Positions 12,810-52,810 of a stretch of 64,000 nucleotides of DNA are shown piece after piece. The stretch is from an uncultured Candidatus Saccharibacteria bacterium. GTDB lineage: Bacteria > Patescibacteriota > UBA1384 > DTJR01. The translations under genes were made by a program, and so were the position numbers. The stretch is from the NCBI GenBank assembly GCA_964487045.1, contig CAZAOT010000002.1, forward strand, positions 53,305 through 117,304. Reading direction: 5' to 3'. The notes under the pieces are model-generated. The model made no database searches. It was not told the origin of the DNA and saw only the letters and a program-made list of their open reading frames with translations. Each line of letters begins with the position of its first letter. The first letter of the stretch is position 1.

Positions 12810-12902
12810 ATATCGACTATAAAGAATTAGAAAAGTTTTTGTATAACGCCAATTTAGTCTTTGAGCAAAATTTTATTGGTGGGATAATTGTGGGGAGGAA
12901 TA

Positions 12903-14483: not shown

Positions 14484-14484
14484 A

Positions 14485-15042
14485 ATGAAGAACCCCGAAA
14501 ATTACGATGCAATTCGAATTGATGGAATAATTTGGAAGATACAAGGATCTGAAGTTATTCCAATTTGCCCAAAAGATAATTTACAAATGTACCCAGTTAA
14601 TAATTCTCGTTTTGGATGGGAAGATGATATTTATAATCGTAGTAATATTCTAAAATGCCTAGATGATCATTTTGTCGAGATGAAAAGGGGCTATGGTGAT
14701 GAGATACGCTATATCACTGACCGTTTAAAGGCCAGGGATCTTAAAAATATTAAAATTTTAAACCTTGATGATGAAGCTATGCCGATTGCAAAAGCAAATT
14801 CGAAAACAACCGATAATAAATATTCGGCAACTATTCAAGTAATGGAATCAAAGCGTGGATTGCAGGTTGTCGTTTACGCTGGAAAAAAGGGTGGCAAAAA
14901 TACACAAATTTTCGTAGAGCCGGAAGCGAAAAAGATGAGTTTTGATCATAATGATGCACACCCCAGTGAAATCTTTACTGAAATTACTGCGAAATTTCAA
15001 GACGGTACTTCCAGCACAATTAAAAAAAATGACAAAAATTAA
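14485..15042 (+). CDS. Hypothetical protein embedded between hsdM and hsdS
   Basis: 185-aa ORF starting 1 nt after the hsdM stop and overlapping the hsdS start by 12 nt; no recognisable motif. Confidence 0.5.
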   Translation: MKNPENYDAIRIDGIIWKIQGSEVIPICPKDNLQMYPVNNSRFGWEDDIYNRSNILKCLDDHFVEMKRGYGDEIRYITDRLKARDLKNIKILNLDDEAMPIAKANSKTTDNKYSATIQVMESKRGLQVVVYAGKKGGKNTQIFVEPEAKKMSFDHNDAHPSEIFTEITAKFQDGTSSTIKKNDKN

Positions 15043-16255
15043 CACCCCAAAACTTAGATTCAAGGAATTCACTGACGAGTGGCAAGAAAAAAAGCTCTGC
15101 GATGTTTTGTTGTGTATTGTGGATAATCGTGGAAAAACACCTGGATTATCCAGCAGGGGAATTCCCTTGATAGAAGTAAATGCAATGGGTGCAAAGAAAG
15201 TTGATTATTTTGGTATCAACAAATATGTCAGCGATGAAACTTATGAAAAATGGTTTAGAAAGCATATTTCAGAGGGAGATGTATTATTCAGCACGGTCGG
15301 AAAGACAGCGGTATGTTCTACTTATAGCGGGGACAAAAAAGCTGCAATTGCTCAAAATATTGTTGGCCTGAGAGCAAATCATCAAAATTCTGCAAACTTT
15401 TTATATTATTTATTAATTGAACCTAGTAATAATAATAAATTTAAGAAAATAGAAATGACTGCTGTTCAGCCAAGCGTTAAAGTTTCTCAAATGATTCACC
15501 TAAAATTTAATCTGCCTCAGAAGCCCGAGCAGCAAAAAATTGCTGATTTTTTAGGAGCGGTGGATGAGAAGATTGAAAAATTGGAAGAAAAGAAAAAGGC
15601 ATTTGAAAAATACAAAAAAGGCATTATGCAGGCAATTTTCAGCCAAATGATTCGTTTCAAAAAACCCGACGGCTCAAATTTTCCGGATTGGGAAGAAAAG
15701 AAATTAGGAGAAATTGGTGAATTTTATCGTGGCCACAGCTACACGGCTGCTAACGTTAAAGTCGAGGGTTTCCTTGTGCTTAGGTCAAATAATATCCAAG
15801 GAAATAAATTAATAATCAATCGCGATCTTCAATTTGTTAACAAGCCTTTTGGTAAACAAATAGCGCTGAGAAAAGATGACATAGCAATATGCATGGCAAA
15901 CGGTAGTAAGCAACTGGTCGGCAAATCAGCTGTGTATGATGGGGATTACAACGGTCCCGCTACAGTTGGCGCATTTTGCTCAATTTATCGATCAAAATGT
16001 TTATTAGCCAAATATTTATTTGAATTGTCAAAGTACGACCGGGAGATTGAACTTCTCCTAAGCGGCACCAACATCAACAATTTAAAAAACTCGGATTTAG
16101 CGAGTATAGGATTCAAATTACCCACATCATTTGAAGAACAAGAAAAAATTGCAGAGTTTTTGTTTACGTTAGATAATAAAATCAATTTAATAAATAGCCT
16201 GCTGGAGCAGACAAAACTTTTCAAAAAATCATTGCTGCAAAGGATGTTTGTATGA
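15031..16255 (+). CDS. hsdS: Type I RM specificity subunit with two target-recognition domains
   Basis: N-terminal PKLRFKEFTDEWQEKKL, central conserved coiled region (QQKIADFLGAVDEKIEKLEEKKKAFEKYKKGIMQAIF) and a second half with the same architecture. The ATG at 15031 is the likely start. Confidence 0.85.
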
Positions 16256-16515
16256 AACCCGAAAACTATGAGCAGCTAAATACGGTTCATTTAGATGACC
16301 TTGATCGTCTGTTGAATTCATGTGGCATAAATTCAGAATACAAACAAAAAAAGGTTAAGTGCAAATTTTGCAAAAACACAATCGACAGTAATAATGTTTA
16401 TTCTGTATTCAAGGATTCAGGTTCTTACAAATTAATATGTGACCGACCAGAATGTATTCAGTCACTACTACAACTTGTTAATGAGCGGAAGAAAAAGGAG
16501 TGCGGTAATGAATGA
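16252..16515 (+). CDS. Small Cys-rich (zinc-ribbon-like) protein embedded in the RM operon
   Basis: 87 aa, CKFCKN...CDRPEC. The ATG overlaps the hsdS stop (ATGA) and the ORF overlaps the next ORF by 8 nt. Confidence 0.4.
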   Translation: MKPENYEQLNTVHLDDLDRLLNSCGINSEYKQKKVKCKFCKNTIDSNNVYSVFKDSGSYKLICDRPECIQSLLQLVNERKKKECGNE

Positions 16516-17617
16516 TGCTTGGAAGTATTTATCGGGATTTGGTTCAGGAACATTTATTACAATAGTTATTGCGTATATCCTTTTTAAGAACCCCGAGGTC
16601 GTCAAGAAATGGGGTGCAATATTCTACGATCTTCTATCAAGAATATTTGATAAGTATAAATATAAATCCGAAAAGTATAGAATCGAAACAAAGCTCAATA
16701 GCTTCGTTGATGATCTCTCTAGAGATTCCGACATCGATCCAACTAAAGTAAGGATTCAATGGGCGGCTAGAGAGGAGGATGAGAAATGTTTAGTTAATGA
16801 TAATGACGTAATTATTGTTATGCGCGATAGAGAACACAAACATAGAAACTTTGTTCACGCAGCATATTTTTTTACATCCAACATGCTGCTCTGGAGAACA
16901 AAAAGACACATTTCAAAAAAACAAGGGCAAGCGATCGATATATACACAGCAAAAAAAATCATAGAGAAAGACCCTGTTTCGCTAAGGATTTATTTAGAGA
17001 ATTATTTTCAGCCACTTCTTGAAGATGCTGACGTTAATAAGTTGGTAAAAAAATTCGTCGAAATTGATAAGTCGGGATTTTATACTAATATTCTTCTAAC
17101 TGAATTATCTTCCCTTGGTTATAAAACACTTTTGGACGCAAAGGACAGCGACATCGTAGTTGAGGCAAAACTTCTCATTGAATTTCTCTATAATTTTGCA
17201 AACCGCGAACTTGGTGATGAGCAAACTGAAGATACCTTCATCGGAAAATATTCTAGGTGCTCTATTAAGATTGTTTCTACAATTACACTCAGAATCCTCG
17301 ATCGAGTTGAGTCTCCAGCGAAAAGAATTCTCGACGCTTTTTCCAGAGGTCTAGAAAATGTGTACATTATTGGACCTTACGGTGAATATGGCAAGGTTTT
17401 TATTGACAAAGTAATAGATAAGGTAATTTCATCAAATGAAAATCTGGTAGTTTGTCAAAAAAGAAAATTTACTGGCTGTATTAAAAAGGATGGCGAGAAG
17501 ATTTCGATATTAACATATTTTGCTCATATTCAGAATCCTAAACAGATATCCTATTTAATTACTGATGATATGACAGAGAGAATTGAAAAATTTAAAACTG
17601 AGGCTGTTGAAAAATGA
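16508..17617 (+). CDS. Hypothetical ~370-aa protein with N-terminal TM helix, embedded between hsdS and hsdR
   Basis: GGAG RBS 8 nt upstream of the ATG at 16508. N-terminal hydrophobic helix (FGSGTFITIVIAYILF). No P-loop or known nuclease motif seen. The stop overlaps the hsdR ATG (ATGA). Confidence 0.5.
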   Translation: MNDAWKYLSGFGSGTFITIVIAYILFKNPEVVKKWGAIFYDLLSRIFDKYKYKSEKYRIETKLNSFVDDLSRDSDIDPTKVRIQWAAREEDEKCLVNDNDVIIVMRDREHKHRNFVHAAYFFTSNMLLWRTKRHISKKQGQAIDIYTAKKIIEKDPVSLRIYLENYFQPLLEDADVNKLVKKFVEIDKSGFYTNILLTELSSLGYKTLLDAKDSDIVVEAKLLIEFLYNFANRELGDEQTEDTFIGKYSRCSIKIVSTITLRILDRVESPAKRILDAFSRGLENVYIIGPYGEYGKVFIDKVIDKVISSNENLVVCQKRKFTGCIKKDGEKISILTYFAHIQNPKQISYLITDDMTERIEKFKTEAVEK

Positions 17618-20409
17618 CAACACAATCCGAATTACAACTTGAAAATACATTAGTCGAGCAAATGCAGCGGTTGGGGTTTGAGTCGATTACAATCGATGGC
17701 GTTGATGCATTGGTTGCAAATCTCAAAACTCAACTCGAAAAATTTAATCAAATAAAATTTTCCGATGCAGAGTTTGCGCAAATTTTGAATCATTTAAACA
17801 AAGGCGATCGATTCCAGAAAGCAAAGACTCTGCGCGACCGATTTATCGTTCGCCGAGATGATGGTGAGACATCGTTCATTCGATTCTTTAATATGGATCA
17901 GTGGTGCAAAAATGAGTACCAAGTTGCAAGGCAGATCACGCAAATTGGCAAATATGAAAACCGCTATGATGTAACTCTTTTGATCAATGGCTTGCCTTTA
18001 GTGCAGATTGAGCTAAAGCGCCGTGGAATGGAAATGAAAGAAGCGTTTAATCAAATCCAACGCTACCACAAACACTCGTTTACTGGAACATTATTTGAGT
18101 ATGTTCAGATTTTTGTTATCTCAAATGGCGTTAACACTAAATACTTTTCAAATAACCCAAACCAATCGTTCGAACAAACTTTTTTTTGGACCGATGAGAA
18201 GAATGAGAAGATAACTAGACTGGAAGATTTTGCCAAGTTATTTCTAGAAAAGTGTGCGGTATCCAAATTCATTGCCGAGTACATTGTACTCGCCGAATAC
18301 CATAAAATCCCATTGGTTTTGCGACCGTATCAGTACTACGCAGTAAAAGAAATTGAATCGCGAGTTAAGGAATCAAACAAAAACGGTTACATCTGGCATA
18401 CCACCGGCTCGGGGAAGACTTTGACATCATTTAAAGCCAGCCAAGTACTCTCAGGAATTCCAGAGGTAAAGAAAGTTTTGTTCGTAGTTGACCGCAAGGA
18501 TTTAGATATTCAAACGACCAAGGAATTCAATTCATTTTCCGACGGCTCGGTGGACGGAACCGATAACACTCGGCATTTAGTTAGCCAGCTAGAGGATAAA
18601 AACCGCAAGCTAATCGTTACAACGGTTCAGAAACTTGATATTGCCATTGGCCGAGAAAGTTATTTGAAAAAGCTGGAATATTTGAAAGATGAAAAAGTAG
18701 TTATCATTTTTGACGAATGTCACAGAGGTCAGTTCGGTCAGACGCATGCGAGAATTAAATCATTTTTTAAGCGCGCGCAACTTTTTGGTTTTACTGGCAC
18801 GCCGATTTTTGCTGAAAATAATGTTGGCGGAGTAACAACGGCCGATGTTTTCGATGAATGCTTGCATCGCTACATCATTACCAATGCGATTTCTGATAAT
18901 AATGTTCTGGGGTTTGCGGTTGAGTATGTAGGCAAATACAAACAAAAGGATAGCGATGTGGTTGATAAAGATATTTTTGCAGATAGTATGGTGGAGGGAA
19001 TAAATACTCGGGAAGTTTTGGAAAGTGATGCGCGGGTTGAAAAGATTGCGGAATATGTGTTGCAAGACTGGAAGCGAAAGACCAAAAATGGAAAGTTCAA
19101 TGCATTCTTTGCAGTTTCGAGTATTGAGATATTAAAGAAATACTACAAGATTTTATCTGCCAAGAAGCCAGATGATTTTAAGATTGCTACAATTTTTACA
19201 TATCAGGCCAACGAAGATGAAGTCATTGATTTGGACGTTGACGCATTTCCAGAGGAGGGCGAACCGGTCAATCAGCATTCGCGCGATTTCTTGGAGAGCT
19301 GTATTAAAGATTACAATGCATTATATTCGACTAACTTTTCAACTGACCGATTTTATGACTATTACCGAGATTTGCAGCAAAGAATTAAAAAGCGAGAAGT
19401 TGATTTAGTTTTGGTCGTAAATATCTTTTTGACTGGTTTTTATAGCCCTCGCTTAAATACTCTATATGTCGATAAAAACTTACGCTATCACGGGCTGATT
19501 CAGGCATATTCGCGAACAAATCGTTTGCTTGATTCCGATAAGCCGCATGGCAATATTGTTTCGTTTAGGAATTTGAAAGAAGCGACAGATAAGGCGCTGG
19601 CACTTTATGGCGACGAGAATGCAAAAGAAATTGTTTTCAAAAAGCCGTACAAGCAACAGAAAAAGGAATTTGAAGTAAAGCTTGTTGGACTCCGGGAGAA
19701 GGTGCCGACCGTTGAGTCGGTTGATGGACTAAAAAGCGAGGATGAGTTAGCTGAATTCGTTAAATCGTTTCGTGATCTACTTAGAGTTAAATCGTCGCTG
19801 GAGACATTTGCCGAATTTTCATTTGCTGATTTAGGTATTTCTGAACAAGAATTTTATGATTATCAAAGTAAATATTTGGATATATATGACGAAAGAAAAG
19901 AACATGGGCAAGGGCCTGAATTGATTCTTGATCAAATTGATTTTGAGTTAGAACTGACAATTAGAGATGTGATCAATTATGACTATATAATTATGCTGAT
20001 TGCTGGACTAAAGAATATAACTTCGGATCGATTGAGAGAAAAGAAGGCTGAGGATATTTTGCGAATGTTTGATCGAGATGTAAAGCTCAGAAAAAAGAAG
20101 GATCTAATAAAGAAATTCATTGAAGAAAATTTGCCAAAGATCGACAAGGCAGAGAGCGTTGAGAAAGCGTTTGGTGAATTTTGGGCAAACGAAAGATCGA
20201 AGGTTTTGCGAGATTTGGCAAGCGAAGAAAATATTCCGGTTGAAAATATCGAGGAGTTGGTAGGTGAATACTTATATACACAAAAATTACCGAAAGATCA
20301 GGAAGTTGCCGACATTCTGCCAGCAGGAACTAAGTTCTTAAAGCAGCAAGGCCTGATTGATCGAATTAAAGGTGTGATTGAGAAAATTGTAGATGTGTTT
20401 GAGTGGTAA
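17614..20409 (+). CDS. hsdR: Type I restriction enzyme R subunit (SF2 helicase/endonuclease)
   Basis: Walker A HTTGSGKTLT, DEAD-box-like FDECHRGQ, and 931 aa typical of HsdR. Confidence 0.9.
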   Translation: MTTQSELQLENTLVEQMQRLGFESITIDGVDALVANLKTQLEKFNQIKFSDAEFAQILNHLNKGDRFQKAKTLRDRFIVRRDDGETSFIRFFNMDQWCKNEYQVARQITQIGKYENRYDVTLLINGLPLVQIELKRRGMEMKEAFNQIQRYHKHSFTGTLFEYVQIFVISNGVNTKYFSNNPNQSFEQTFFWTDEKNEKITRLEDFAKLFLEKCAVSKFIAEYIVLAEYHKIPLVLRPYQYYAVKEIESRVKESNKNGYIWHTTGSGKTLTSFKASQVLSGIPEVKKVLFVVDRKDLDIQTTKEFNSFSDGSVDGTDNTRHLVSQLEDKNRKLIVTTVQKLDIAIGRESYLKKLEYLKDEKVVIIFDECHRGQFGQTHARIKSFFKRAQLFGFTGTPIFAENNVGGVTTADVFDECLHRYIITNAISDNNVLGFAVEYVGKYKQKDSDVVDKDIFADSMVEGINTREVLESDARVEKIAEYVLQDWKRKTKNGKFNAFFAVSSIEILKKYYKILSAKKPDDFKIATIFTYQANEDEVIDLDVDAFPEEGEPVNQHSRDFLESCIKDYNALYSTNFSTDRFYDYYRDLQQRIKKREVDLVLVVNIFLTGFYSPRLNTLYVDKNLRYHGLIQAYSRTNRLLDSDKPHGNIVSFRNLKEATDKALALYGDENAKEIVFKKPYKQQKKEFEVKLVGLREKVPTVESVDGLKSEDELAEFVKSFRDLLRVKSSLETFAEFSFADLGISEQEFYDYQSKYLDIYDERKEHGQGPELILDQIDFELELTIRDVINYDYIIMLIAGLKNITSDRLREKKAEDILRMFDRDVKLRKKKDLIKKFIEENLPKIDKAESVEKAFGEFWANERSKVLRDLASEENIPVENIEELVGEYLYTQKLPKDQEVADILPAGTKFLKQQGLIDRIKGVIEKIVDVFEW

Positions 20410-36640: not shown

Positions 36641-37094
36641 TGAAATAAAAATCTTCCGATGTTTCGGAAGAAGGTTAGGATTATATCAGAAAATGATAAT
36701 TTGTCAAGCCCCAAGGGCATATTTATAGCTATTTTAGGCAAGTTTGAACCTGTTAAGTAGAAATGCTATAAAATTTGAACCTGTAAATATTGAGAAAAAT
36801 ACAAATTTTGGGGCATAAAAACTATTGACAATTTGCCCATTATATGGTAAGTTTACCCCTTGCTTGATTCGCCCAGCTTGAAAAAAGTATTGAGGGCAGA
36901 ATTCCAGCTGGGAATTGCGGAGAGTTGCTTCAAATTTTTAAATGAAGCAGTGCCCCTCCTTCCCTTTTCCTGGCTGGAATCCTGCCCTTTTATAAAACCC
37001 GAGGATAGCGCTTTAGCGCTACTCGAGTTCTAGGGCAATACGTTCCTTGACATAAGGCAACAACTCGGCGCAACCAGCGCCAAGGAGGAAAGAG

Positions 37095-38480
37095 ATGAGA
37101 AGCACGATTCGCATAGCGACCGTAGTGCTAGTGCTGATGTATCTGGCATGTTCGGCCGCGATGTCGTTCGGGATCCTCGAGGGGTTGGCAATCTTCTCGG
37201 CTCTGGCCGGGAAGGGCGGCAAGCCTGAGCAGGTCACCGTAACCAAGGGTGAGATTTCCATGACGGCTACGCCAGTCATGGCGATCCCGACTGGGTTCGG
37301 TTTCAAGCTCCAGTCAATGACGTTCAACGTAACGGCTGGGACCGGGCTCGCTCCAGACTTCTATCATCCGGTTTTTCCTGTCTTGAAGTGCCTGGCACCC
37401 GATGGCAACCCCATCATGCTGGTACCAATTGACTGGCAACCGAATGGGAAGCCACTCCAGAATCTCCTCGTCACCCTCGACAACGAGCCAATCACGAAGG
37501 CTGTAGATGCTCGTTCACTCGTGGAGAACGAGGGTGCTTGGCTGCGACGAGCGATCCGCGAGGCCAACCGCGACCTTGGACGACAGTATGAAGATTCGAG
37601 CAACGTGCCCGACACCTTCTTCGAACCGTTCATCGCTATGTCAAAAGATGTCAAGCACTCCTTGACGGCTGACAAGCGCCACAACTTCAACAGTCCCACT
37701 GGAAGCGTCAACATGATGCTGGTCTTCCCGATGGGCAACCTCTTCTCGCGCCCGCATTTCGTCGCCTGCAACCTCAAGCAACCCGGCAAGGGAGATAACA
37801 GCTACAACTGCTCTTTCCATTTCCGGGTGCTCGATGAGCCGGTTGAAGTGCCGGCACCCTTCGAGTCGATCGTGCCCATGAACATTGACGGAAAGCTCTC
37901 GCAGCAGCAGATCACTCAGCCTGCACAGCAGGCTTCTGCACCGTCAGCTCAGGTAGCGGGCACCGCGGATAATCGCACTCTCGGAAGCGCGCCCCAACCT
38001 CAGCAACCGCAGTATCAGGCTCCGGCGCCCCAGCAGCAGGCCCCTCAGTACCAGCCGCCTGCCCAGCAATCACAGCCGAGTATTGCGACACCGCCAACGA
38101 TCGACAAGGCTGCGCAGTTCATCCTGCGCCCCGGCGATCAAGCATGGTGGAAGCCGTGCTCATGGGAGCGTCCGAGCAATTGGACGCCGGGTGATCATTG
38201 CTCGGTGGTCCTGTTCTTTCTGGACAGGAGGTACAACCTCCTGCACAGCGGGAACCTCGATGAACGGGACGTGGAGTGGTGGATCAACGGCGATCGGCAG
38301 GACATGAACTTGCCGTCGCATAACTCGATCACCTTTCCCGATCACACCCCGTCGTGCGGTGTGATCTATCAGCGCATGCCGTCAAACAGCGACATTACGT
38401 TGCTGTTCCGCGGCAAGCGCTACGGCTTCAGCACGACTCAGGCGAATATACTCTGGCGACCGATCATGGTCGCCGAGTAA
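37095..38480 (+). CDS. Secreted hypothetical protein with Pro/Gln-rich repeat (high-GC island)
   Basis: Signal peptide; low-complexity PQPQQPQYQAPAPQQQAPQYQPPAQQ block; GC about 60%; SD AAGGAGG. Confidence 0.6.
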   Translation: MRSTIRIATVVLVLMYLACSAAMSFGILEGLAIFSALAGKGGKPEQVTVTKGEISMTATPVMAIPTGFGFKLQSMTFNVTAGTGLAPDFYHPVFPVLKCLAPDGNPIMLVPIDWQPNGKPLQNLLVTLDNEPITKAVDARSLVENEGAWLRRAIREANRDLGRQYEDSSNVPDTFFEPFIAMSKDVKHSLTADKRHNFNSPTGSVNMMLVFPMGNLFSRPHFVACNLKQPGKGDNSYNCSFHFRVLDEPVEVPAPFESIVPMNIDGKLSQQQITQPAQQASAPSAQVAGTADNRTLGSAPQPQQPQYQAPAPQQQAPQYQPPAQQSQPSIATPPTIDKAAQFILRPGDQAWWKPCSWERPSNWTPGDHCSVVLFFLDRRYNLLHSGNLDERDVEWWINGDRQDMNLPSHNSITFPDHTPSCGVIYQRMPSNSDITLLFRGKRYGFSTTQANILWRPIMVAE

Positions 38481-38511
38481 TCCGGCGAAAGCCAAGGAGG
38501 ATTGAGAGAAA

Positions 38512-39669
38512 ATGAAGACACTGATGCTTGTTGTACTGCTACTCACGGCCTCTCTGGGCTTCGCCCAGAGTGAGCCGAACTCGAGCACGCCGCCTGTGAC
38601 CGAGCAGGTCCAGGCGACCACGACGACTACGACAGCGACGGCTACGGCGACGAGTACAACGCCCGCGCCGACCGCAGTGACCACACAACCGGTAACGGTG
38701 ACATTCGACGTCACCGTCCCGATCAGCACCCCCTTGAAAGGGGGAGTTGCGAGTGGGCTAGTTGTCAACCGGACACGCCCGCTCACGAGAGCGGAGTCTG
38801 AGTTCCTCAAGACCGTTCCGAATGGCAAAGACTCGGACGGACAGAGCTACCGTGACCTGATCGAAGTCGCATTCCGATCCGGCATCGCCCACGCCGAGAC
38901 GGCGCCTAGCTACGGCACCGTCGACAACAATGGTGTCGTATACGACTACTCGTATTACTGCCGGCTCGTTCAGCCGGCGGATGCGAGTAAGCCCGTCACC
39001 GGCAGGGTCGAAGACACCTTACACGGGACCGCGACTGGGACGATCAATGTCCCGGTCATCACCGTCAAGGGCGCAGATGGCGCTCCCGGCAGGCCCGGCG
39101 AGACGGTGTACGTCCAGCCTGCGCCGGCTCCGCAGCCTGTCTGCCAGCAGCAGGCCCCGGCGCAGTACTGCCCGCCCCCGCCTCCGCCCCAGCGCGTGCT
39201 GTTCTACACAGTACCGAAGGACCCGTATGGCTCTCCGGTGGTCGCCCAGAACAATGGGTGCAACCAGCAGAGTGCCTACATCCCACAGTACAACGCGTGG
39301 GATCGGCTTGGGCAGGTGCTTCTTCCGTTCGCACTCAAGCCTGAGCCCAACAATTGGAGCTGGTCCACCGTGATCAGCAATGGGAGTTCGTCCAACTCCA
39401 ACGCCACCAACAACAACTCCAACACCGCCTACGGCGGAGCGGGAGGAGCAGGTGGGCAAGGAGGTAGCTCCTGGTCGAATAGCCAGGGCGGCAACGCCTG
39501 GCAGAATCAGGGCCAGGGGATGATGCAGGGTCAGTGGACCCTGAACGACATCACCAACACACTCAACAATATAAATGATTGGCTGAACGCCAATCAGAAC
39601 ACCCTCAACGGTGGCGATCAGACCACCGGAGTGGGGGTGACAACGAATACCGGGGTCGCCGTGCACTAG
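38512..39669 (+). CDS. Secreted hypothetical protein with poly-Thr linker, Pro/Gln-rich and Gly/Asn/Ser-rich segments, and a C-terminal TLNN..W..NTLNGG.QTT module
   Basis: Signal peptide (LTASLGFAQSEP); SD AAGGAGG; GC about 62%; C-terminal 45 aa homologous to aa 67-103 of the adjacent LPXTG protein. Confidence 0.6.
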   Translation: MKTLMLVVLLLTASLGFAQSEPNSSTPPVTEQVQATTTTTTATATATSTTPAPTAVTTQPVTVTFDVTVPISTPLKGGVASGLVVNRTRPLTRAESEFLKTVPNGKDSDGQSYRDLIEVAFRSGIAHAETAPSYGTVDNNGVVYDYSYYCRLVQPADASKPVTGRVEDTLHGTATGTINVPVITVKGADGAPGRPGETVYVQPAPAPQPVCQQQAPAQYCPPPPPPQRVLFYTVPKDPYGSPVVAQNNGCNQQSAYIPQYNAWDRLGQVLLPFALKPEPNNWSWSTVISNGSSSNSNATNNNSNTAYGGAGGAGGQGGSSWSNSQGGNAWQNQGQGMMQGQWTLNDITNTLNNINDWLNANQNTLNGGDQTTGVGVTTNTGVAVH

Positions 39670-39699
39670 TTGCACATACGACCCCCACGACCTCATCAC

Positions 39700-39733
39700 T
39701 TGGAGCGGCGGGACTAAACTCCCGCCGCTCCAA
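39700..39733. terminator. Perfect 14-bp-stem hairpin at the 3' edge of the high-GC island
   Basis: TTGGAGCGGCGGGA-CTAAAC-TCCCGCCGCTCCAA. Confidence 0.7.
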
Positions 39734-39871
39734 TAGACTTTTCTAAATTTCACACCATTGACTTTTTCTTCAGAATTTGCTTCAATTGACCACAAATAAG
39801 CAATATCCAAGAAGCAGTCAATGCTTTAGAAAAATAATTAGTTCCCCGAGAATGTGGGGGAAGGGAGATAT

Positions 39872-40723
39872 ATGAAAAAAGGATATACAATCCTTTTAGG
39901 AGCAGCTGTTCTGACCCTTGTCGGCGGGACAGTAACGTTTGCAACTTCTGCAGACGAGATTATTAATGGTGTCTTCGCTGAGACCGGGATTGAGCAAAAT
40001 CAAACCCAGTGGCAGTGGCAAGATCAGGAGCAATTTCAGGCTCAGATCCAAGAATCCATTAATAATAACGAGAATACACTCAACAATACGAATGAGTGGA
40101 CAAATACTAATACCAACACTCTAAATGGTGGGAATCAAACCACCAACGTTGGTATAGTAAATAACACCGCTGTCGCAGTAGACAATGGCGGTGGATCTGG
40201 ATCAAGTGATGACAACGGCGGAGCCGCTGCATCAACTGGTGGAGCCGTGTCAGTAGGTAGCGACGAAAATGGAAATAGCGGAGTTGCTGTTTCTGGAAAC
40301 GCTGCTGCTGCAGCTGGTAATGCCGCTGCTACCGGAACAGGTGCCGCACAAAATGGCGGAACAGGTGGTCAGCAAGCAACAACTGGCGTAGGAGTCGCAG
40401 CTGGAGAAAATGCAGCTGCTTCATCTGCTTCACAAACTGGAACAAACAACGGCTCAAGCGCTGCTGCCTCAACTGGCAACAGCTCAGCCGCTGCTTCAAC
40501 CGGATCAAATGGAACTTCAGCTACAACCACTTCAGGTGGACAAAAAGTAGCTCTAGCTCAGCCAGAGCAAAAAGTTGCTCAGGCTGTGAAAAGTTCTGGA
40601 ACCTTGCCAAAGACAGGTATTCCAGCAGCCGTTCCAGCACTAGGCTCGCTTGCAATTGGAGCAATATCTACAGTAGCATTAGCTGCTCGAAGAAAGTTTC
40701 AGTTCATTAAAGAAAACCTATAA
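39872..40723 (+). CDS. LPXTG-anchored surface protein (sortase substrate), Ala/Gly/Ser-rich
   Basis: Signal peptide; C-terminal LPKTG, then hydrophobic stretch and ARRKF tail; GGGAGA RBS. Confidence 0.7.
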   Translation: MKKGYTILLGAAVLTLVGGTVTFATSADEIINGVFAETGIEQNQTQWQWQDQEQFQAQIQESINNNENTLNNTNEWTNTNTNTLNGGNQTTNVGIVNNTAVAVDNGGGSGSSDDNGGAAASTGGAVSVGSDENGNSGVAVSGNAAAAAGNAAATGTGAAQNGGTGGQQATTGVGVAAGENAAASSASQTGTNNGSSAAASTGNSSAAASTGSNGTSATTTSGGQKVALAQPEQKVAQAVKSSGTLPKTGIPAAVPALGSLAIGAISTVALAARRKFQFIKENL

Positions 40724-40892
40724 TTCAGCACTATAAATAGGCAAAAATCCCCAGGTAAAACTGGGGATTTTTGTTTGTATTAAAACCAGACTATCAAATC
40801 ATCAAATTTTAAAATCCAAATTACTAAAAAAAATACCAAATATTAAATTTATAAAACTTTAAAAATCAATCGTTATCAGGTATAATACGGGC

Positions 40893-42836: not shown

Positions 42837-42920
42837 AAAATAATCTTAGCAGGACCCGTTCGACTCGCAATGCTCGCTCAGGGCAGGGCGTCGCCGGGGA
42901 TTGTACTGCGAAAGGAAACA

Positions 42921-43781
42921 ATGGCAAAAGCAAAGAAAGAAATGTCCTCATCAGAGGAAACGGAGCTCGATAAGGAAATCGCAGGCGACCAGGAATCTCA
43001 TTCTTCGCAAGAGATCTCTCTTGAGGATGACCAAAAAGAAACGGAGACTGAGGAGCAAGTAGCATCTGAAGAAGCTGCAATAAATACTGATAACGACACT
43101 GCCAAAGAAGCGAATAAGGCTGAAAAAACTAGTAAAAAGACTACAAAAGCGAAACAAAGCAAACAGGCTAAGAAGTCAAAAATCAAAAAGTCAAAATCTA
43201 AGAAATACCAAGAAACTATCAAGGAATTCGACAAGAACAAAGAGCATACGATCGAAGATGCAATCAAATTAGTAAAGACACTATCATACTCGAAATTCGA
43301 TGGAACCATCACGCTTGACGTAAAGCTCTCTAAAGCTAAGAAGGGCGATGATGCTATCAGAGGAACAGTCAAATTGCCTCACTCTACTGGCAAGTCATCT
43401 AACGTCGTTGTTATAACTGAAGAGCTTATCGAGAAGATCAAAGGTGGATACTCTGACTTTGATGTCCTCATCACAAGTCCAGATATGATGCCAAAGCTTG
43501 CACAAGTAGCAAAAATACTTGGACCAAAGGGTAAAATGCCTAATCCAAAAGATGGAACTGTAGTTGCTGATCCTGAGGAAGCAGCTAAAGAAATCAGCCT
43601 TACCGCAAGATACAGAATGGATGCTGGACGAAATCTTCATATCGCTGTCGGAAAAGTCTCATTTGAAGAAAATGTACTTGCTGAAAATACTAGAGCAGTA
43701 CTCAAAGCTCTAGCTCATCTAAAGAAAGATGCAGCCTATCTCAGCCCAACCATGGGACCAGGCGTGAAGATTAGTCTGTAA
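42921..43781 (+). CDS. rplA: 50S ribosomal protein L1 with ~100-aa K/E/S-rich N-terminal extension
   Basis: C-terminal 200 aa match L1 (GTVKLPHSTGKSSNVVVIT, ILGPKGKMPNPKDGTV). AAAGGA RBS before the ATG at 42921. Confidence 0.75.
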   Translation: MAKAKKEMSSSEETELDKEIAGDQESHSSQEISLEDDQKETETEEQVASEEAAINTDNDTAKEANKAEKTSKKTTKAKQSKQAKKSKIKKSKSKKYQETIKEFDKNKEHTIEDAIKLVKTLSYSKFDGTITLDVKLSKAKKGDDAIRGTVKLPHSTGKSSNVVVITEELIEKIKGGYSDFDVLITSPDMMPKLAQVAKILGPKGKMPNPKDGTVVADPEEAAKEISLTARYRMDAGRNLHIAVGKVSFEENVLAENTRAVLKALAHLKKDAAYLSPTMGPGVKISL

Positions 43782-45110: not shown

Positions 45111-45683
45111 ATGGCAGACGAAGAAACAAAAGTCGAAGAAGCTGTAGAAACCCCAGCAGAAGAAAAAGCTGAAGAAACTACAGAAGAAGTAAAAGAGGAA
45201 GCTCCTAAGGCTGAAGAAAAAGTCGAAGAAGCTTCCGACACCGCTGAAGCTACGCCGGACAAGCCTAAAGCAGAAGTAAAAGAAGAAAAAGCCGAACCAA
45301 CCGGTAAATTTGCTGACATGATCAAGCAAATTGAAGAAATGAAGGTTGCTGATCTCGCTGAGCTTGTAAAAGCTCTAGAGGACAGATTCGGTGTATCTGC
45401 CGCTATGCCTATGGCAGTAGCTGGTGCAGGTGCTGCAGCTGGAGCTGCTGGAGCTGAGGCTGAAGAGAAGTCAAGCTACACAGTCATGCTTAAGGATGGT
45501 GGCGCTCAAAAGATCGCTGTCATCAAGGCTGTTCGAGAAATCAACCAAGAACTAGGTCTTAAAGAGGCCAAGGACTTAGTTGACGGCGCTCCTAAGGAAG
45601 TCAAAAAAGATGTTCCTAAAGCCGATGCAGAAGAAGCCAAGAAAAAACTCGAAGCTGCTGGTGCAACTGTTGAGTTGATATAA
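45111..45683 (+). CDS. rplL: 50S ribosomal protein L7/L12 with ~65-aa acidic N-terminal extension
   Basis: C-terminal domain [35 protein letters not shown]...[13 protein letters not shown]; Ala/Gly hinge; preceded by an unusual E/K-rich extension. Confidence 0.85.
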
Positions 45684-46994: not shown

Positions 46995-47057
46995 ACTAAG
47001 GCTGTATTAGCGTAGCGGTATTTTTGGTATAATTACTTCAAGTGAATAAGAGGGGTA

Positions 47058-49517
47058 ATGAATTCTGATTTTTTCTACACCTACCAGGTTTATTTTTGGG
47101 TTGGAATAGTACTACTCGTTGGTATAGTTATTTATTTTTTGTATAAGCTGTTTCTAAAAAGTGAACTTTCAAAAAGAGCAAATGATCTTGTAATGATCGA
47201 GGTTAGGCTGCCAAAAAAATACGAGATCGAGTCTTACGAACATCAGAAAAATATATCCGAGATAGAGGCGATTGCCGATCAGTTCTTCTCGTCCTTGGCG
47301 TCACTATACGAAACAAAGATATCGGGCCTATTGTCCCAACCTGTAATTTCGTTTGAGTATGTTGCTAGAGATAAAGAAATTATCTTTTTTATCGGTGTTC
47401 CAAGGACTCTGCAGAGCTTGATGGAAAAACAGATTCAGAGCTTCTATCCTGAGGCTAATATCGAGCCAAATGGTGATTTTAGAATTTTCGAGGAAGGACT
47501 CGATGTCGCTTACGGAATTATCAAAACCTCTAGAAGTTACATTTATCCTATAAAAACATATGCGGAGCTAGAATACGACACTATTCAGAACATCACCAAC
47601 TCACTTTCTAAAATTGGCGAAGATGCTAGAGCTTCAATCCAAATCCTAGTTCGACCGACAAACCAAGGTTGGAGGACGCATATCGAATGGGCGATTAGAA
47701 AAATTCAGGAGGGCAGGGGAGTTCCGCTTGGAATTTCTTGGTATAATAAAATTTCTTATTTTATAGGCCAGTTCTTCCAAAGTTCAACCACCACTGATCA
47801 GGATCTTGCTAAGAGAAATACTCCGCTTCAAGAAGAAACGATAAAATTACTAACAAAGAAAAGCGCTAAGACCGGCTTTGACGTGCAGGTTAGAATCGTC
47901 GCGCTTGCCAAAACAAAACAAGAAGCAGAGGTGATCCTTCGAAATATTTATTCAGGCTTTACTCAATTTAACTCTCCAGATAGAAATACTTTGAAGATGT
48001 TTAGAAATTATGACAAAAAAGCATTCTTAACACATTTTATACTCAGATCCTTTATTCCATTTGATAAAATCATCCTTAACTCCGAAGAGCTAGCAACACT
48101 TTATCACTTCCCATCTGAGCACATAGACACGCCAGGAATTAGGTGGTTTATGGCCAAACGTTCTTCGGCACCAGCAACTTTGCCGAAAGAGGGGATTGTC
48201 CTTGGAAAAAATGTCTATCGAGGTGACGAAAATCTAATTAGATTGAAAGAAAACGATAGACGAAGACATCTTTATGCGATTGGAATGACCGGCACCGGTA
48301 AGTCTACATTTTTTGAAAGTTTGATACTTCAGGACATAAAAAACGGCAAGGGCGTCGCAGTATTTGATCCTCATGGAGAACTAGTTGAAAAAATTCTAAG
48401 CAAGATTCCCAAAGAAAGAGCTGAAGACGTTATTTATTTCGATCCCTCTGATGCCACAAGACCAATGGGAGTGAACCTCTTAGAGTGGAAGACTAAAGAC
48501 CAGAAGGACTTTTTGGTTCAGGAAGCTATTCAAATATTCTATAAACTCTTTGATCCAAACGGCCAAGGATTTGTCGGCCCTCAGTTTGAACACTGGATGA
48601 GAAATGCAGCACTGACCGTTATGGAATATCCTGATGGGGGAACGCTACTCGAAATACCTAAATTATTTTCTGATGATAGCTTTCGCGAGCAAAGAGTGGC
48701 ATATCTTAAAGATGATGTAGTAAAATCATTCTGGACGCAGCAAATGGCTAAAACTGCTGATTTTCACAAATCTGAGATGTTTAATTACTTCATCTCTAAA
48801 TTTGGTAGATTCATGACAAATATCACAATGCGTAATATCATTGGCCAGCCAAAATCTGCATTTGACTTCCGTGAGGTGATGGATAGCAAGAAGATTCTAC
48901 TTATCAAACTCGCTAAGGGAGAAATTGGGGAAATCAATTCAAATCTACTAGGAATGATTTTTGTCGCTAGACTGTTTACTGCTGCGCTCTCAAGGACCGA
49001 CATAGACGAAGCTGACAGACAAGACTTCTATCTATACGTTGATGAATTTCAAAACTTTGCAACTGATACATTTGCTTCGATTCTTTCAGAAGCGAGAAAA
49101 TTCAGACTTAATCTCAATATCACCAACCAATACATTGCTCAGATTCCAGAAAACATTCGCGATGCAATAATCGGTAACGTAGGCACTTTGGTCGCGTTTA
49201 GGATCGGTGTGCCCGATGCTGAATTTATGGAGAAAGAATTTGAACCTGTCGCCAACAAAACAGATTTAAACAACATCGATGCGTTTAATGCCTATATTAA
49301 ACTCTTAGTAGATAATGCTCCGACAAGACCTTTTTCAATGCAGACAATAAAAGATCCAACCGAGGAGAACACAAAACTCGGCTCGGCTATCAGAGAGCTT
49401 TCTCGGTTGAAGTACGGACGGGATGTAAGTATAGTAGAGTTAGAAATTCAAGACAGAATCAAGACTTATGAAGCACCTAGCCAAACTCAAGACATTACTA
49501 GAGAGACAGGGAGATAA
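47058..49517 (+). CDS. Membrane-anchored P-loop ATPase of the FtsK/HerA/VirD4 (T4CP-like) superfamily, paralog 1
   Basis: N-terminal TM helix; Walker A RRRHLYAIGMTGTGKST; DPHGEL motif; Walker B FYLYVDEFQNFAT; NITNQYIAQ. About 400-aa N-terminal domain paralogous to the next gene. Confidence 0.6.
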   Translation: MNSDFFYTYQVYFWVGIVLLVGIVIYFLYKLFLKSELSKRANDLVMIEVRLPKKYEIESYEHQKNISEIEAIADQFFSSLASLYETKISGLLSQPVISFEYVARDKEIIFFIGVPRTLQSLMEKQIQSFYPEANIEPNGDFRIFEEGLDVAYGIIKTSRSYIYPIKTYAELEYDTIQNITNSLSKIGEDARASIQILVRPTNQGWRTHIEWAIRKIQEGRGVPLGISWYNKISYFIGQFFQSSTTTDQDLAKRNTPLQEETIKLLTKKSAKTGFDVQVRIVALAKTKQEAEVILRNIYSGFTQFNSPDRNTLKMFRNYDKKAFLTHFILRSFIPFDKIILNSEELATLYHFPSEHIDTPGIRWFMAKRSSAPATLPKEGIVLGKNVYRGDENLIRLKENDRRRHLYAIGMTGTGKSTFFESLILQDIKNGKGVAVFDPHGELVEKILSKIPKERAEDVIYFDPSDATRPMGVNLLEWKTKDQKDFLVQEAIQIFYKLFDPNGQGFVGPQFEHWMRNAALTVMEYPDGGTLLEIPKLFSDDSFREQRVAYLKDDVVKSFWTQQMAKTADFHKSEMFNYFISKFGRFMTNITMRNIIGQPKSAFDFREVMDSKKILLIKLAKGEIGEINSNLLGMIFVARLFTAALSRTDIDEADRQDFYLYVDEFQNFATDTFASILSEARKFRLNLNITNQYIAQIPENIRDAIIGNVGTLVAFRIGVPDAEFMEKEFEPVANKTDLNNIDAFNAYIKLLVDNAPTRPFSMQTIKDPTEENTKLGSAIRELSRLKYGRDVSIVELEIQDRIKTYEAPSQTQDITRETGR

Positions 49518-49518
49518 A

Positions 49519-52083
49519 ATGCCGGAAAATACTTATAACTTCAATGATGACAGAGTCTTGTGTAGACTGCTGATTCCGAAGAATAATGAAAAAACACCTG
49601 CTGCCGCGGAGTTGTTTTTCGCTGCACTTCATGGCGTATATACCGCTTCTAGCCGAATCCAACCGATAATGAGCTTTGAAATGGTCTCGATCAATAAATA
49701 TATCCAGTTTTACTTCGAGGTACCAAAATATTTAAAAGAATTTGTTGAGGGGCAATTATATGCTCAATACCCAAATGTCGAGATATCTGTAGCGGAAGAT
49801 TATGTCAAACATGCCCCAGATAAATTCTCGGTAGGAGCAGAATTATTAACTACTAAAGAAGATGTTTTTCCAATTAAAACCTTCCAAAGTTTCGAGGCAG
49901 ATCCGCTATCAGGAATCACCAGTATCCTCAGCCAGTTAGCTACAAACGAAGAATTATGGGTGCAAATCTGTATCGCTCCTGTTAAGGATACCTGGCAGAA
50001 AAAATCAGTTTCTCATGTAAACGCACTTAAGGCCGGAAGGAATCCGGGAGAATCATTATTTAAAAGTATTGTTCGTGGTGCCTGGGGAGTAGCTCCAACA
50101 ATCGCCGGAGAGAAACCCGCTTCAAGCTCTGTAGACATATCAGGACCGATGGCAGCGGCTATCAAAGGAATTGAAGAAAAGTGTACGAAACTTGGTTTCG
50201 AGACAAAAATAAGGGTAGTCTCAACCTCAACCGACCAGACAATTTCTAGCCAAAGACTTGCCGGAGTCGTGGGAGCTTTCAAGCAGTTCAACTCCACAAA
50301 CATGAACGGATTTATGCAGGGACCAGCCTTAACTGGCCAAACAATTATCGAAGCATACAAAAAGAGAGCAATCGGATTCAAGCCTTATATTCTAAACACT
50401 GAAGAGCTTGCATCAATTTTTCACTTGCCGGGCGAATCGGTCGTAACTCCATCGATGAATTACGCCGGAAGTAAGAAAGGGGAGCCGCCACTCAACTTGC
50501 CCATAATTGGCGAGGATGCTGAGGATGACTCAGAAATGTCTGTACTTGGAAAAACGAACTTCCGAGGAACAGAGAAGAAATTTGGTATAAAAATCAAAGA
50601 TAGGGCTCTTCACATGTACGCGATTGGAAAAACCGGTACAGGTAAATCCACACTCCTTAAAAATATGATCATCGACGATATTCACAAGGGAAGGGGAGTT
50701 GCAGTAGTTGATCCTCACGGAGACCTTGTAGCCGATGTCATGGATCATATTCCAGAGTCGAGAATTAACGACGTTATCTTCTTTTCTCCTGCCGATAGAG
50801 ATTTTCCAGTAGGCTTTAACTTATTTGAAAAAGTTGACCCCGAATATAAAAACATAGTTGCTTCTGGTATTGTCGGAGTTTTCAAAAAAATATTCGGAGA
50901 ATCATGGGGACCAAGACTCGAATATATCTTGAGAAATGTTGTGCTTGGACTTTTAGATTATCCAGAGGCAACTTTGCTACAAGTTCTCAAAGTTTTAACT
51001 GATACAAAGTTTCGCCGACAGGTAGTTGAGCAGATTTCAGACCCAATCATTAAAGATTTTTTCGTAAACGAATTTGAGCGCTATGATCAGAAGTTCAGAA
51101 CAGAAGCGGTCGCGCCAATTCAAAACAAAGTAGGACAATTCTTAAGTTCATCCACAATTCGCAACATTGTCGGCCAGAGCTCAAACTCGATTGACATGAG
51201 AAAAGCGATGGATGAAAGTAAAATTGTTTTGGTAGACCTGTCGATAGGAAGAATTGGCGAAGACAATAGCGCACTACTCGGATCATTGATTATTACTAAA
51301 ATTCAGATGGCTGCGATGAGTCGAGCTGAAATGAAAAGAGAAGAGCGAACCCCTTTCTACCTATACGTAGACGAGTTTCAGAACTTTGCAACTGATTCTT
51401 TTGCAGTAATCCTTTCAGAGGCCAGAAAATATGGATTGTCACTTATGGTAACGAACCAGTATATCGCTCAGATGCCTGAGACAGTCGCAAACGCGGTTTT
51501 CGGAAACGTAGGCTCGATTATCACTTTCAGAGTAGGAGCAGGGGATGCTGAGTTTTTGAATCGCGAATTTGTACCCGTCTTTGAACCATCAGACCTCGTG
51601 AATATCGATAACTACGCCATTTATCTAAAAATGGCAATTAATGGTGTGACTAGCCAACCTTTCTCAGCAAAGACAGTTTTGTCGAACTATGAGCCGACGG
51701 GCTTCAAGGCACAAATTATCGAACAATCAAGAATAAAGTATTCGAGACCAAGAGAAGAGGTTGAGAAGGTAATTGCAGAAACAACATTAGGTTCATCAAG
51801 CAATCCGAACAACCTAAGTCCAAATGAGCTTATAGGCAAGGATAAAGCAGAAAATACCCCGGAAAATATAGCTTCCCCGGCCGTCGAAGTAGGGGAGGGG
51901 GAGTCGAATTTTGAGGAAAATAAGGAAGAAATTAAACCAGATTTACCGGAAGAACTAGCTAACGCCAAGAAGGGGGAAGATTATGACACAAATAATTGGT
52001 ATTTTTTGACCCGCACTAATTTTCGTAAACTTACCGGTAGGGAAGAACCGGAAGATGAAGTAAAAGAAGCTTCTGAAGAATAA
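49519..52083 (+). CDS. P-loop ATPase of the FtsK/HerA/VirD4 (T4CP-like) superfamily, paralog 2, acidic C-terminal tail
   Basis: GGGAGA RBS before the ATG at 49519. Walker A HMYAIGKTGTGKST; DPHGDL; FYLYVDEFQNFAT; MVTNQYIAQ. C-terminal E/P-rich ~110 aa. Confidence 0.6.
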   Translation: MPENTYNFNDDRVLCRLLIPKNNEKTPAAAELFFAALHGVYTASSRIQPIMSFEMVSINKYIQFYFEVPKYLKEFVEGQLYAQYPNVEISVAEDYVKHAPDKFSVGAELLTTKEDVFPIKTFQSFEADPLSGITSILSQLATNEELWVQICIAPVKDTWQKKSVSHVNALKAGRNPGESLFKSIVRGAWGVAPTIAGEKPASSSVDISGPMAAAIKGIEEKCTKLGFETKIRVVSTSTDQTISSQRLAGVVGAFKQFNSTNMNGFMQGPALTGQTIIEAYKKRAIGFKPYILNTEELASIFHLPGESVVTPSMNYAGSKKGEPPLNLPIIGEDAEDDSEMSVLGKTNFRGTEKKFGIKIKDRALHMYAIGKTGTGKSTLLKNMIIDDIHKGRGVAVVDPHGDLVADVMDHIPESRINDVIFFSPADRDFPVGFNLFEKVDPEYKNIVASGIVGVFKKIFGESWGPRLEYILRNVVLGLLDYPEATLLQVLKVLTDTKFRRQVVEQISDPIIKDFFVNEFERYDQKFRTEAVAPIQNKVGQFLSSSTIRNIVGQSSNSIDMRKAMDESKIVLVDLSIGRIGEDNSALLGSLIITKIQMAAMSRAEMKREERTPFYLYVDEFQNFATDSFAVILSEARKYGLSLMVTNQYIAQMPETVANAVFGNVGSIITFRVGAGDAEFLNREFVPVFEPSDLVNIDNYAIYLKMAINGVTSQPFSAKTVLSNYEPTGFKAQIIEQSRIKYSRPREEVEKVIAETTLGSSSNPNNLSPNELIGKDKAENTPENIASPAVEVGEGESNFEENKEEIKPDLPEELANAKKGEDYDTNNWYFLTRTNFRKLTGREEPEDEVKEASEE

Positions 52084-52810
52084 ATTGTACGACATCATTT
52101 AATCTCTAAATTATTGTTCTATTAGTTCGAATAGCACTGACTTAGATCTAAGCATATACGTATAAATCGTTTAATAAGCGCGAATTATTATTGTATTATT
52201 AGCCATATTTTGACCTATAAAAGCTACAGACTCAGAGCCAGTGATCAAGAGATAGCAATAGGCGAAATAAGAGGGAAATTAAAGGCTTAATTAAATACAT
52301 TAAATACTATTAAATACTTATGATTATTTGCATGTTGTATGTCTACAAATTATAGCTAGACCAAACTGGATTTTAATCATGTCGCATAATATATCTTTCA
52401 CGACATCAACGAGCTAGAAAAATATTTGCTCAGATTTATATAATGGAGTATTTAATTAATTATTTGGATATCAATTTCAGCGGTGAAATATCTAGTTTTA
52501 TAAACAATAATTATTGCTTTATTCTCCAGCAATCATATGAACGTATATCTACTTAAAATCATACCTAATTATGCTAAATAATAGCTCATTTATACCTGTT
52601 AGAGGCCCTGTAATCGCCGTAGAGAGGTTTTAATTTGTAAGACGACTAAATACTCATCTAATACAATAAAATAACAAGTAAAATCACGTTAGTGAGTCAA
52701 CTTTATTATAATTTTATTTAATTATAATAATTTACATAATTTAAGAGCATAACTAGCTAAAAGCTAATTAAAATAATTAATAAATAAAAAATTAGAACCG
52801 ATCCCCCAGC
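52084..52810. other. 727-bp AT-rich ORF-free region between convergent genes, with three tandem 10-bp TTAAATAC-type repeats (52291-52320)
   Basis: No ORF of at least 60 aa on either strand; about 78% A+T; tandem TTAAATACAT/TAAATACTAT/TAAATACTTA at helical periodicity; several small hairpins. Confidence 0.5.

Follow-up and report, generated by a model that had tools for sequence, protein, structure and literature searches.

The window analyzed here is a 64,000-nucleotide stretch of contig CAZAOT010000002.1 (positions 53,305 to 117,304) from an uncultured patescibacterium, and its subject is a pair of adjacent genes, called A1 (47058..49517, plus strand) and A2 (49519..52083, plus strand), that encode large P-loop ATPases. 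Our tentative reading, to which we give a probability of roughly 0.45, is that a type IV coupling protein (T4CP) of monoderm conjugation systems gave rise, through duplication and fixation in the chromosome, to A1 and A2, and that the two serve as a translocase that passes cargo to a type IV secretion system (T4SS). The two proteins are paralogues with a common domain architecture and intact catalytic motifs, they are conserved vertically across the phylum, and they are homologous to plasmid proteins that occupy the coupling-protein slot. Their architecture is VirB4-like and their ATPase sequence is coupling-protein-like. The family appears to have been counted already among "T4CP homologues" and is otherwise uncharacterized. 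New here are the tandem-paralogue structure, the VirB4-like N-terminal domain, the link to Bacillus plasmids and phages, two partner families (X and Y) and a dif-like site.

An earlier note on this DNA, made from the sequence alone, had described adjacent open reading frames (ORFs) of 819 and 855 aa. The coordinates and the 819-aa length of A1 held, and the second length was corrected to 854 aa. The mechanical A2 ORF starts at 49468 (871 aa) and the likely start is the ATG at 49519, which has a GGGAG Shine-Dalgarno sequence and is separated from the stop codon of A1 by a single base (TAAaATG). The two genes are translationally coupled. A1 itself is preceded by AGAGGGG and begins 63 nt after the end of tgt. 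A consensus promoter scan upstream of A1 found no full -35/-10 pair, a possible extended -10 element (TGGTATAAT, 47025..47033, plus strand) was read from the sequence as a weak candidate, and read-through from tgt is also possible because a terminator scan between tgt and A1 found none.

BLASTP aligned A1 with A2 at 36% identity over 714 aa (E = 4e-152, far beyond chance), and the N-terminal ~330 aa are 27% identical, confirming the paralogy that the earlier note had extended to the N-terminal domain. The motif set it had listed, G(M/K)TGTGKST, DPHG(E/D)L, FYLYVDEFQNFAT and NQYIAQ, was found in both translations. Walker A of A1 (GMTGTGKS, residues 409-416) lies at 48282..48305 and that of A2 (GKTGTGKST, residues 370-378 of the 854-aa protein) at 50626..50652. 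The Walker B acidic pairs are D662-E663 of YLYVDEF in A1 (49041..49046) and D618-E619 in A2 (51370..51375), all on the plus strand. A1 is laid out as a transmembrane (TM) helix at residues ~10-32, a DUF8128 domain with the fold of the VirB4/TrwK N-terminal domain at ~44-372 (47187..48173, plus strand) and a RecA-like nucleotide-binding domain (NBD) with an inserted all-helical domain at ~373-770. Maximal 19-residue Kyte-Doolittle hydropathy at the N-terminus is 2.5 near residues 15-33 of A1 and 0.84 in A2. A2 likewise combines DUF8128 with the ATPase, has no TM helix in the window's clade and ends in a low-complexity, net-acidic tail of roughly 100 aa (51736..52080, plus strand, start coordinate approximate), which had also been noticed earlier and which both the translation and tail statistics support. 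The description of A2 is based on its start context, its paralogy to A1, Pfam matches above cut-off, its separate orthologue group and the tail statistics.

Profile searches placed the pair in the VirD4/VirB4/HerA branch of the FtsK-HerA P-loop ATPases with coupling proteins as the closest sequence models, in agreement with the likeness to T4SS coupling proteins and FtsK/HerA translocases first proposed. The C-terminal half of A1/A2 scored above the Pfam cut-offs of T4SS-DNA_transf, TrwB_AAD_bind, TraG-D_C and DUF87 (for A2: TrwB_AAD_bind, DUF87 and TraG-D_C), and the only solved structure reached by sequence profile was TrwB. Of the other families suggested at the outset, AAA_10 and FtsK_SpoIIIE stayed below cut-off, the latter at 15-16 bits against 24, and no 4TM, alpha or gamma domains were found in A1 or A2. 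NCBIfam HerA models reached 14-15 bits against a cut-off of 800. DUF8128 (PF26449) is a precomputed annotation on both window proteins (P0001, P0121), and a literature search on "DUF8128" found nothing.

In the AlphaFold2 model of A1 (pLDDT 84.7) a TM helix leads into an alpha/beta N-domain, which is followed by a RecA-like domain. Residues 480-610 form a helical insert in the RecA-like domain, placed between the two Walker motifs in the manner of T4CPs. The figures listed after the A1 model are 29.5 for the VirB4 C-domain, 28.3 for the DptH C-domain, 25.9 for TrwB, 24.2 for HerA, 23.6 for DotL and 16.2 for FtsK. The best structural matches of the N-domain were TrwK/VirB4 at 6-8% identity, with no HerA chain among the matches listed. 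This raises a rival explanation in which A1 and A2 are VirB4-type assembly or energizing ATPases of an unrecognized pilus or secretion machine, the N-domain docking on membrane partners as VirB4 does on VirB3/VirB8 and the paralogues corresponding to the inner and outer R388 subunits. TrwK/VirB4 is the only match to the fold of the N-domain, A1 and A2 are as long as VirB4 and have its two-domain layout, and the N-terminal TM helix of A1 resembles VirB3-VirB4 fusions. However, no VirB4 sequence model reached its cut-off: AAA_10 scored 11.7 bits against 27.5 in A2 and did not match A1, CagE_TrbE_VirB matched neither protein, VirB4_plasma gave 20 bits against 590, and a Bacillus VirB4 tblastn query did not detect A1/A2 at E <= 0.01, nor any other part of the window. 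Patescibacteria also encode a genuine VirB4, distinct from this family, within their T4SS cluster, and the Bacillus plasmid member of the family described below shares its plasmid with a VirB4 and itself fills the position of the T4CP. We consider a VirB4-type role quite improbable. Placement in VirB4/TraC, which the earlier note had named, together with a canonical T4SS elsewhere in the genome, as an outcome that would speak against its proposal, is supported for the N-domain by fold and by no sequence model.

The coupling-protein reading draws on relatives outside the phylum. A search with the ATPase domain outside Patescibacteria returned 602 plasmid records. On a 27.5-kb B. subtilis plasmid (NZ_CP154917.1) an 885-aa "DUF87 domain-containing protein" (WP_345805471.1) aligned to A1 residues 89-762 (E = 3e-47), and its N-terminal 320 aa matched the DUF8128 profile with an hhalign probability of 98.5%. 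Immediately downstream of its gene come a Replic_Relax relaxase, genes for conjugal transfer and an AAA_10 VirB4, so that it occupies the coupling-protein slot. A 65-kb B. subtilis plasmid had a similar arrangement with TcpD/TcpE-family genes downstream. These Bacillus plasmid homologues have no TM helices and carry long acidic C-terminal tails as in A2. We considered whether they are the VirD4 of pLS20 and rejected this, as the pLS20 T4CP (gene 48, two TM helices, IPR003688) differs in architecture. The plasmid contexts of the closest ATPase-domain matches outside the Candidate Phyla Radiation (CPR), in Sulfitobacter, Rhodococcus and Haladaptatus, were uninformative. The family also matched phrog_5156 over its full length (E ~1e-87). 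In the one phage inspected, 035JT001, the homologue (gene 50; locus L091, 5956-8112) lies in the early/recombination region beside a host-nuclease inhibitor, an ERF recombinase and replication genes.

Distribution was assessed in 80 related genome loci fetched from different lineages, with ±10 kb flanks. A1 and A2 each have their own orthologue series: aligned almost end to end, homologues in a wide range of Patescibacteria share 50-60% identity with one or the other. In a neighbor-joining tree the A1 clade and the A2 clade were each monophyletic with the plasmid homologues as outgroup. The gene order tgt, A1, (X), (Y), A2, then secF/secD on the opposite strand was retained across the 80 loci. 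The N-domain profile gathered 3,471 clusters at 50% identity; the domain was at the N-terminus in all of the best 150 matches listed, and full-length matches were typically ~800-1,100 aa. The earlier description of an orphan pair was therefore given up: the neighborhood survey found fixed housekeeping synteny, and A1 and A2 belong to a family that spans the phylum, is inherited vertically and joins DUF8128 to a T4CP-like ATPase.

Median identities over 76 distant loci were 49.6% for A1 (809 aa aligned) and 52.8% for A2 (759 aa aligned), compared to 47% for SecD, 45% for Tgt, 43% for SecF, 42% for L1 and 57% for PrfB. These values are on par with SecD and Tgt, and A1 and A2 are therefore under constraint at the housekeeping level. 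GxTGTGKST and YVDEF, present in both proteins, were at least 90% conserved in both orthologue groups, and the same holds for G409, G412, G414 and K415 (A1 numbering). Among the paralogue-specific conserved differences, 18 of 21 fell in the helical domain, the substrate-facing part of T4CPs. In 54 of 60 related loci the A2 orthologue, too, begins with a hydrophobic helix; the helix was lost only in the clade of the window, whose A1 and A2 genes adjoin directly, so that a membrane anchor confined to the first protein holds for the window by hydropathy and fails as a general rule. A2 orthologues extend a median of 146 aa beyond the core and A1 orthologues 14 aa. Many A2 orthologues end in h-x-E-G-x-x-h-x-h (LKEGEEIVL, LDEGVAVNI) after the long low-complexity tail. 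A docking function is conceivable for this end motif, which the A2 of the window does not evidently have.

Two further explanations bear on this distribution. The first is that the pair is a decayed remnant of an integrated conjugative element, and homology to plasmid coupling-slot proteins speaks for it. We rejected it as extremely improbable: GC content of the A1/A2 region (0.39-0.42) equals that of the surrounding genome, there is no integrase, relaxase or repeat, the flanks are identical in the 80 loci, and the ORFs are intact with conserved catalytic residues. The second, also raised in the earlier note, is a role in nucleic-acid defence as ATPases of the HerA, DptH or MADS type. PADLOC gave mad8 matches at E 1e-15 to 1e-17 along with weak HerA models, and a Type I restriction-modification system is in the window ~27 kb away. 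Against this, the PADLOC matches were only to generic mad8/HerA ATPases without partner genes, and neither in the window nor in the 80 related loci does a neighboring gene encode a nuclease, Sir2, methylase or other effector. The pair has fixed housekeeping synteny, vertical inheritance and ~50% conservation across the related loci, whereas defence islands vary; a search of viral contigs found no relative, and SEML1_0142 of S. epibionticum, a likely member of the family, is called essential. Gene context and PADLOC results thus lend little support to a defence function, which we regard as very unlikely.

The related loci carry two gene families inside the A1/A2 cluster. Family X (~170 aa, without a Pfam domain) lies between A1 and A2 in 39 related loci, L012 (4640-5140) among them. 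It falls into 3,110 clusters, of which all named members are Patescibacteria or unclassified bacterial metagenome-assembled genomes (MAGs). By eye, X has a helix-like charged N-terminal stretch followed by a beta-rich-looking region. Family Y, a DNA-binding protein (~345 aa, Sigma70_r4 plus HARE-HTH), lies between A1 and A2 as well, just upstream of the A2-type gene, in 28 related loci (e.g. L019, 13327-14355). In S. epibionticum, SEML1_0294 has the Sigma70_r4 plus HARE-HTH architecture of Y and is immediately upstream of SEML1_0293; the linkage of Y to A2 is deep. Hidden Markov models of X and Y gave no match in the window, and neither is encoded there.

Published data provide the T4SS side of the coupling-protein reading. 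Quinonero-Coronel et al. (2025) counted 5,713 VirD4-type T4CP homologues in 2,918 of 3,035 Patescibacteria genomes and proposed that the patescibacterial T4SS derives from monoderm conjugation machinery, with T4CP homologues possibly exapted (PMC12102498). About two T4CP homologues per genome in that survey fits the A1/A2 pair. Wang et al. (2023) annotated SEML1_0142 (1019 aa) and SEML1_0293 (921 aa) of S. epibionticum as TraM-recognition and T4SS DNA-binding proteins, "core" and "Patescibacteria-enriched" (PMC10633639). SEML1_0142 received ES/ES/ES in the HMM calls from transposon sequencing (PMC10633639, Tables S1/S2), and SEML1_0294, with the Y-type architecture, was called essential (PMC10633639). 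One T4CP-like protein, SEML1_0142, and the T4SS are thus both called essential in this species.

We infer that A1 and A2 form a hetero-oligomeric ring with DNA as cargo and a link to a T4SS. The two proteins would assemble, probably mixed, into a ring-shaped ATPase at the cytoplasmic face of the membrane, with A1 as the membrane anchor in this clade. The long acidic tail of A2 may dock an adaptor or substrate, to which the helical domains would also bind. ATP hydrolysis by both subunits would thread the substrate through the ring, and the analogy with the plasmid relatives together with the deep linkage to Y makes protein-bound DNA the most likely substrate. The ring would then pass what it carries to the patescibacterial T4SS, whose genes would lie outside the window, a step to which we give slightly less than even odds. 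A DNA-handling role of some kind, among the functions first suggested for the pair, is plausible.

Several observations weigh against descent from, and work as, a coupling protein. The best NCBIfam matches, to TraD/VirD4 models, scored 44-47 bits against cut-offs of 250-650 and are all far below them. A1 and A2 carry the ~330-aa VirB4-like N-domain ahead of the ATPase, which canonical T4CPs do not have. Housekeeping-level conservation is unusual for conjugation proteins, and Bacillus phages, which have no T4SS, carry full-length DUF8128-ATPase homologues (e.g. gp156 of phage G). A Pfam scan of 40 large ORFs in the window found no T4SS, relaxase or pilus genes, as the earlier note had observed; the flanks of the 80 related loci had no relaxase or mating-pair-formation genes; and the Bacillus VirB4 tblastn query found none in 1.36 Mb of related loci, a search of limited sensitivity for divergent patescibacterial VirB4. 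In the 2025 survey only 148 of the 5,713 T4CP homologues were near virB4, and VirB4 was present in 2,417 of the 3,035 genomes (80%) compared to 96% for T4CP homologues (PMC12102498). The essential T4SS of S. epibionticum has no recognizable coupling protein, and SEML1_0293 was called NE/NE/NE and is dispensable although the T4SS is essential (PMC10633639). SEML1_0142 and SEML1_0293 are look-alikes, likened to A1 and A2 by annotations and domain positions only. On the other side, a T4SS outside the window may well explain the pair, because the survey has VirB4 in most genomes and T4CP homologues are rarely near virB4.

A separate observation is a candidate dif (Xer) site in the spacer between the convergent A2 and secF. 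The 28-mer is a palindrome of 11-6-11 structure, ATGTCGCATAA TATATC TTTCACGACAT (52379..52406, no strand assigned). Chance would give 0.01 such sites in the window, which has this one alone. Of 59 testable loci, made up of the window and 58 relatives, 42 have exactly one such site, always between A2 and secF (e.g. L060, 17727-17754), and none was found elsewhere in 1.3 Mb of loci or in shuffles. The arms are conserved and the 6-bp center is variable. The consensus of the relatives, ATGTCGCAyAA-N6-TTrTGCGACAT, agrees with the published E. coli dif at 20 of 28 positions, the inner CATAA and TTATG among them; the window copy is more diverged, with TTTCA and not TTATG in its right arm. The site coincides with the cumulative GC-skew maximum and with the switch of gene strand from plus to minus, and on this sequence evidence it is a candidate dif site at the replication terminus. 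A literature search on dif/Xer in the CPR found nothing, and as far as we could find this is the first candidate dimer-resolution site proposed for Patescibacteria. It would also give a replication-terminus marker in fragmented MAGs.

The spacer itself (52084-52810) is an unusually long, AT-rich non-coding stretch of 728 bp. Its only ATG-started ORF of at least 30 aa is 37 aa long, it had no Rfam match at E <= 1, and among the relatives it is conserved only in 40 dif-like bp. In 20 related loci a gene for a small membrane protein of ~127 aa fills this position.

The dif-like site next to an FtsK-superfamily pair is suggestive, and a functional link to the ATPases can be imagined in which A1 and A2 are a T4SS-independent housekeeping DNA translocase at the membrane, working on the cell's own chromosome or on incoming DNA, for example at the terminus/dif during division, with Y for recognition and as an auxiliary to FtsK. 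The site lies directly downstream of A2 wherever it was found and nowhere else, at the point of GC-skew maximum and gene-strand convergence. Conservation equal to SecD and Tgt, homologues in more genomes than VirB4 and unlinked to virB4, phage homologues in early/recombination regions, and the deep Y-A2 linkage all fit such a role. Cytoplasmic DNA pumping would moreover be the simplest stand-alone activity, because single-TM anchors alone should form no channel. Against it, S. epibionticum has a complete and essential FtsK, SEML1_0096, with 4TM, alpha, motor and gamma domains (PMC10633639), which also weakens the idea that the pair replaces FtsK. The S. epibionticum look-alikes are non-adjacent, 137 kb and 279 kb from dnaA, the palindrome is only a candidate dif, and in a neighborhood that is syntenic throughout, its adjacency may only reflect conserved, inherited gene order. 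We know of no T4CP that acts with Xer recombinases. Taken together, we judge a housekeeping translocase rather unlikely.

A bolder form of this idea, which we hold to be clearly unlikely, is a phylum-wide, T4SS-independent DNA pump of conjugative ancestry at the replication terminus, acting on the cell's own chromosome as a non-FtsK second route to terminus processing or DNA clearance in ultra-small cells. Y (Sigma70_r4/triple winged-helix, essential) would be its DNA-recognition module, and one recombinase alone would probably act on the adjacent palindromic dif. As a weaker corollary, the DUF8128 family may preserve an ancestral, VirB4-like coupling-protein architecture.

Whichever function applies, Patescibacteria make up a large share of bacterial diversity and are host-dependent, and what can be learned of their lifestyle comes mainly from the few envelope machines that they conserve. 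The A1/A2 family appears nearly universal in the phylum, if it is the same as that counted in the 2025 survey, and one likely member is essential in the sole genetically tractable species. The tandem pair, the VirB4-like N-domain, the Bacillus plasmid and phage relatives and the X and Y partners make its function directly testable in S. epibionticum.

The window has a GC content of ~0.39, a low-GC stretch of a Patescibacteria chromosome, and its closest named relatives are Candidatus Berkelbacteria MAGs. Gene order on the plus strand is prfB, ybaB, pth, rplA, L10 leader, rplJ, rplL, a strong terminator, tgt, A1 and A2, followed beyond the spacer by secF, secD, trxB and gap on the opposite strand. 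The L10 leader (RF00557, 44375-44505, upstream of rplJ) scored 44.7 bits against a gathering score of 44. Two ribosomal proteins have charged low-complexity N-terminal extensions if their listed starts are correct, ~120 aa in L1 (303 aa, 42870-43781) and ~65 aa in L7/L12 (190 aa, 45111-45683). Upstream, 36700-40750 is a high-GC island (0.49-0.58 against ~0.39) encoding three proteins with signal-peptide-like or hydrophobic N-termini, no Pfam family and long low-complexity Q/P/T/N/G-rich stretches. The C-terminus of the last protein is made up of an LPKTG sortase-type motif, a TM segment and a basic tail. The Type I restriction-modification system (12888-20409) consists of hsdM, a 185-aa ORF without a Pfam match, hsdS and hsdR, with a 392-aa ORF without a Pfam family (16439-17617) between hsdS and hsdR.

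Compared to known systems, A1 and A2 share several features with T4CPs (VirD4/TrwB/TraD/DotL): the RecA-like NBD, Walker A and B, the all-helical insert, matches to T4CP-domain profiles and, in A1, an N-terminal membrane anchor. The acidic C-terminal tail of A2 resembles the tails of TraD and DotL. The pair differs in having one TM helix (A1) or none (A2, in this genome) where two directly preceding the NBD are usual, an arrangement to which some Gram-positive T4CPs are exceptions, and in being two fixed paralogues with no relaxase or T4SS genes nearby. With VirB4/TrwK/TraC the pair has in common the size, the two-domain layout and an N-domain of VirB4 type. Unlike them, A1 and A2 lie outside a T4SS cluster, beside tgt, ribosomal protein genes and secDF and not VirB3/VirB6/VirB8, and Patescibacteria have a VirB4 of their own. 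FtsK/SpoIIIE shares the ATPase superfamily, a membrane anchor and a gene beside a dif-like site, but has the 4TM, alpha and gamma domains that A1 and A2 lack, and a canonical FtsK exists in at least one Patescibacterium. For HerA and the DptH (DndH) C-domain, DUF87 passes its cut-off, but the best matches of the N-domain are TrwK/VirB4, and A1/A2 have no adjacent NurA, Sir2 or Dnd partner in the related loci. SEML1_0142 and SEML1_0293 resemble A1 and A2 in a P-loop domain that starts at residue ~360-380, and differ in being longer and non-adjacent. The Bacillus plasmid homologue WP_345805471.1 differs in being single-copy, plasmid-borne and beside a relaxase and VirB4; at ~22-24% identity it has full-length homology to the pair, including DUF8128, and the long acidic tail.

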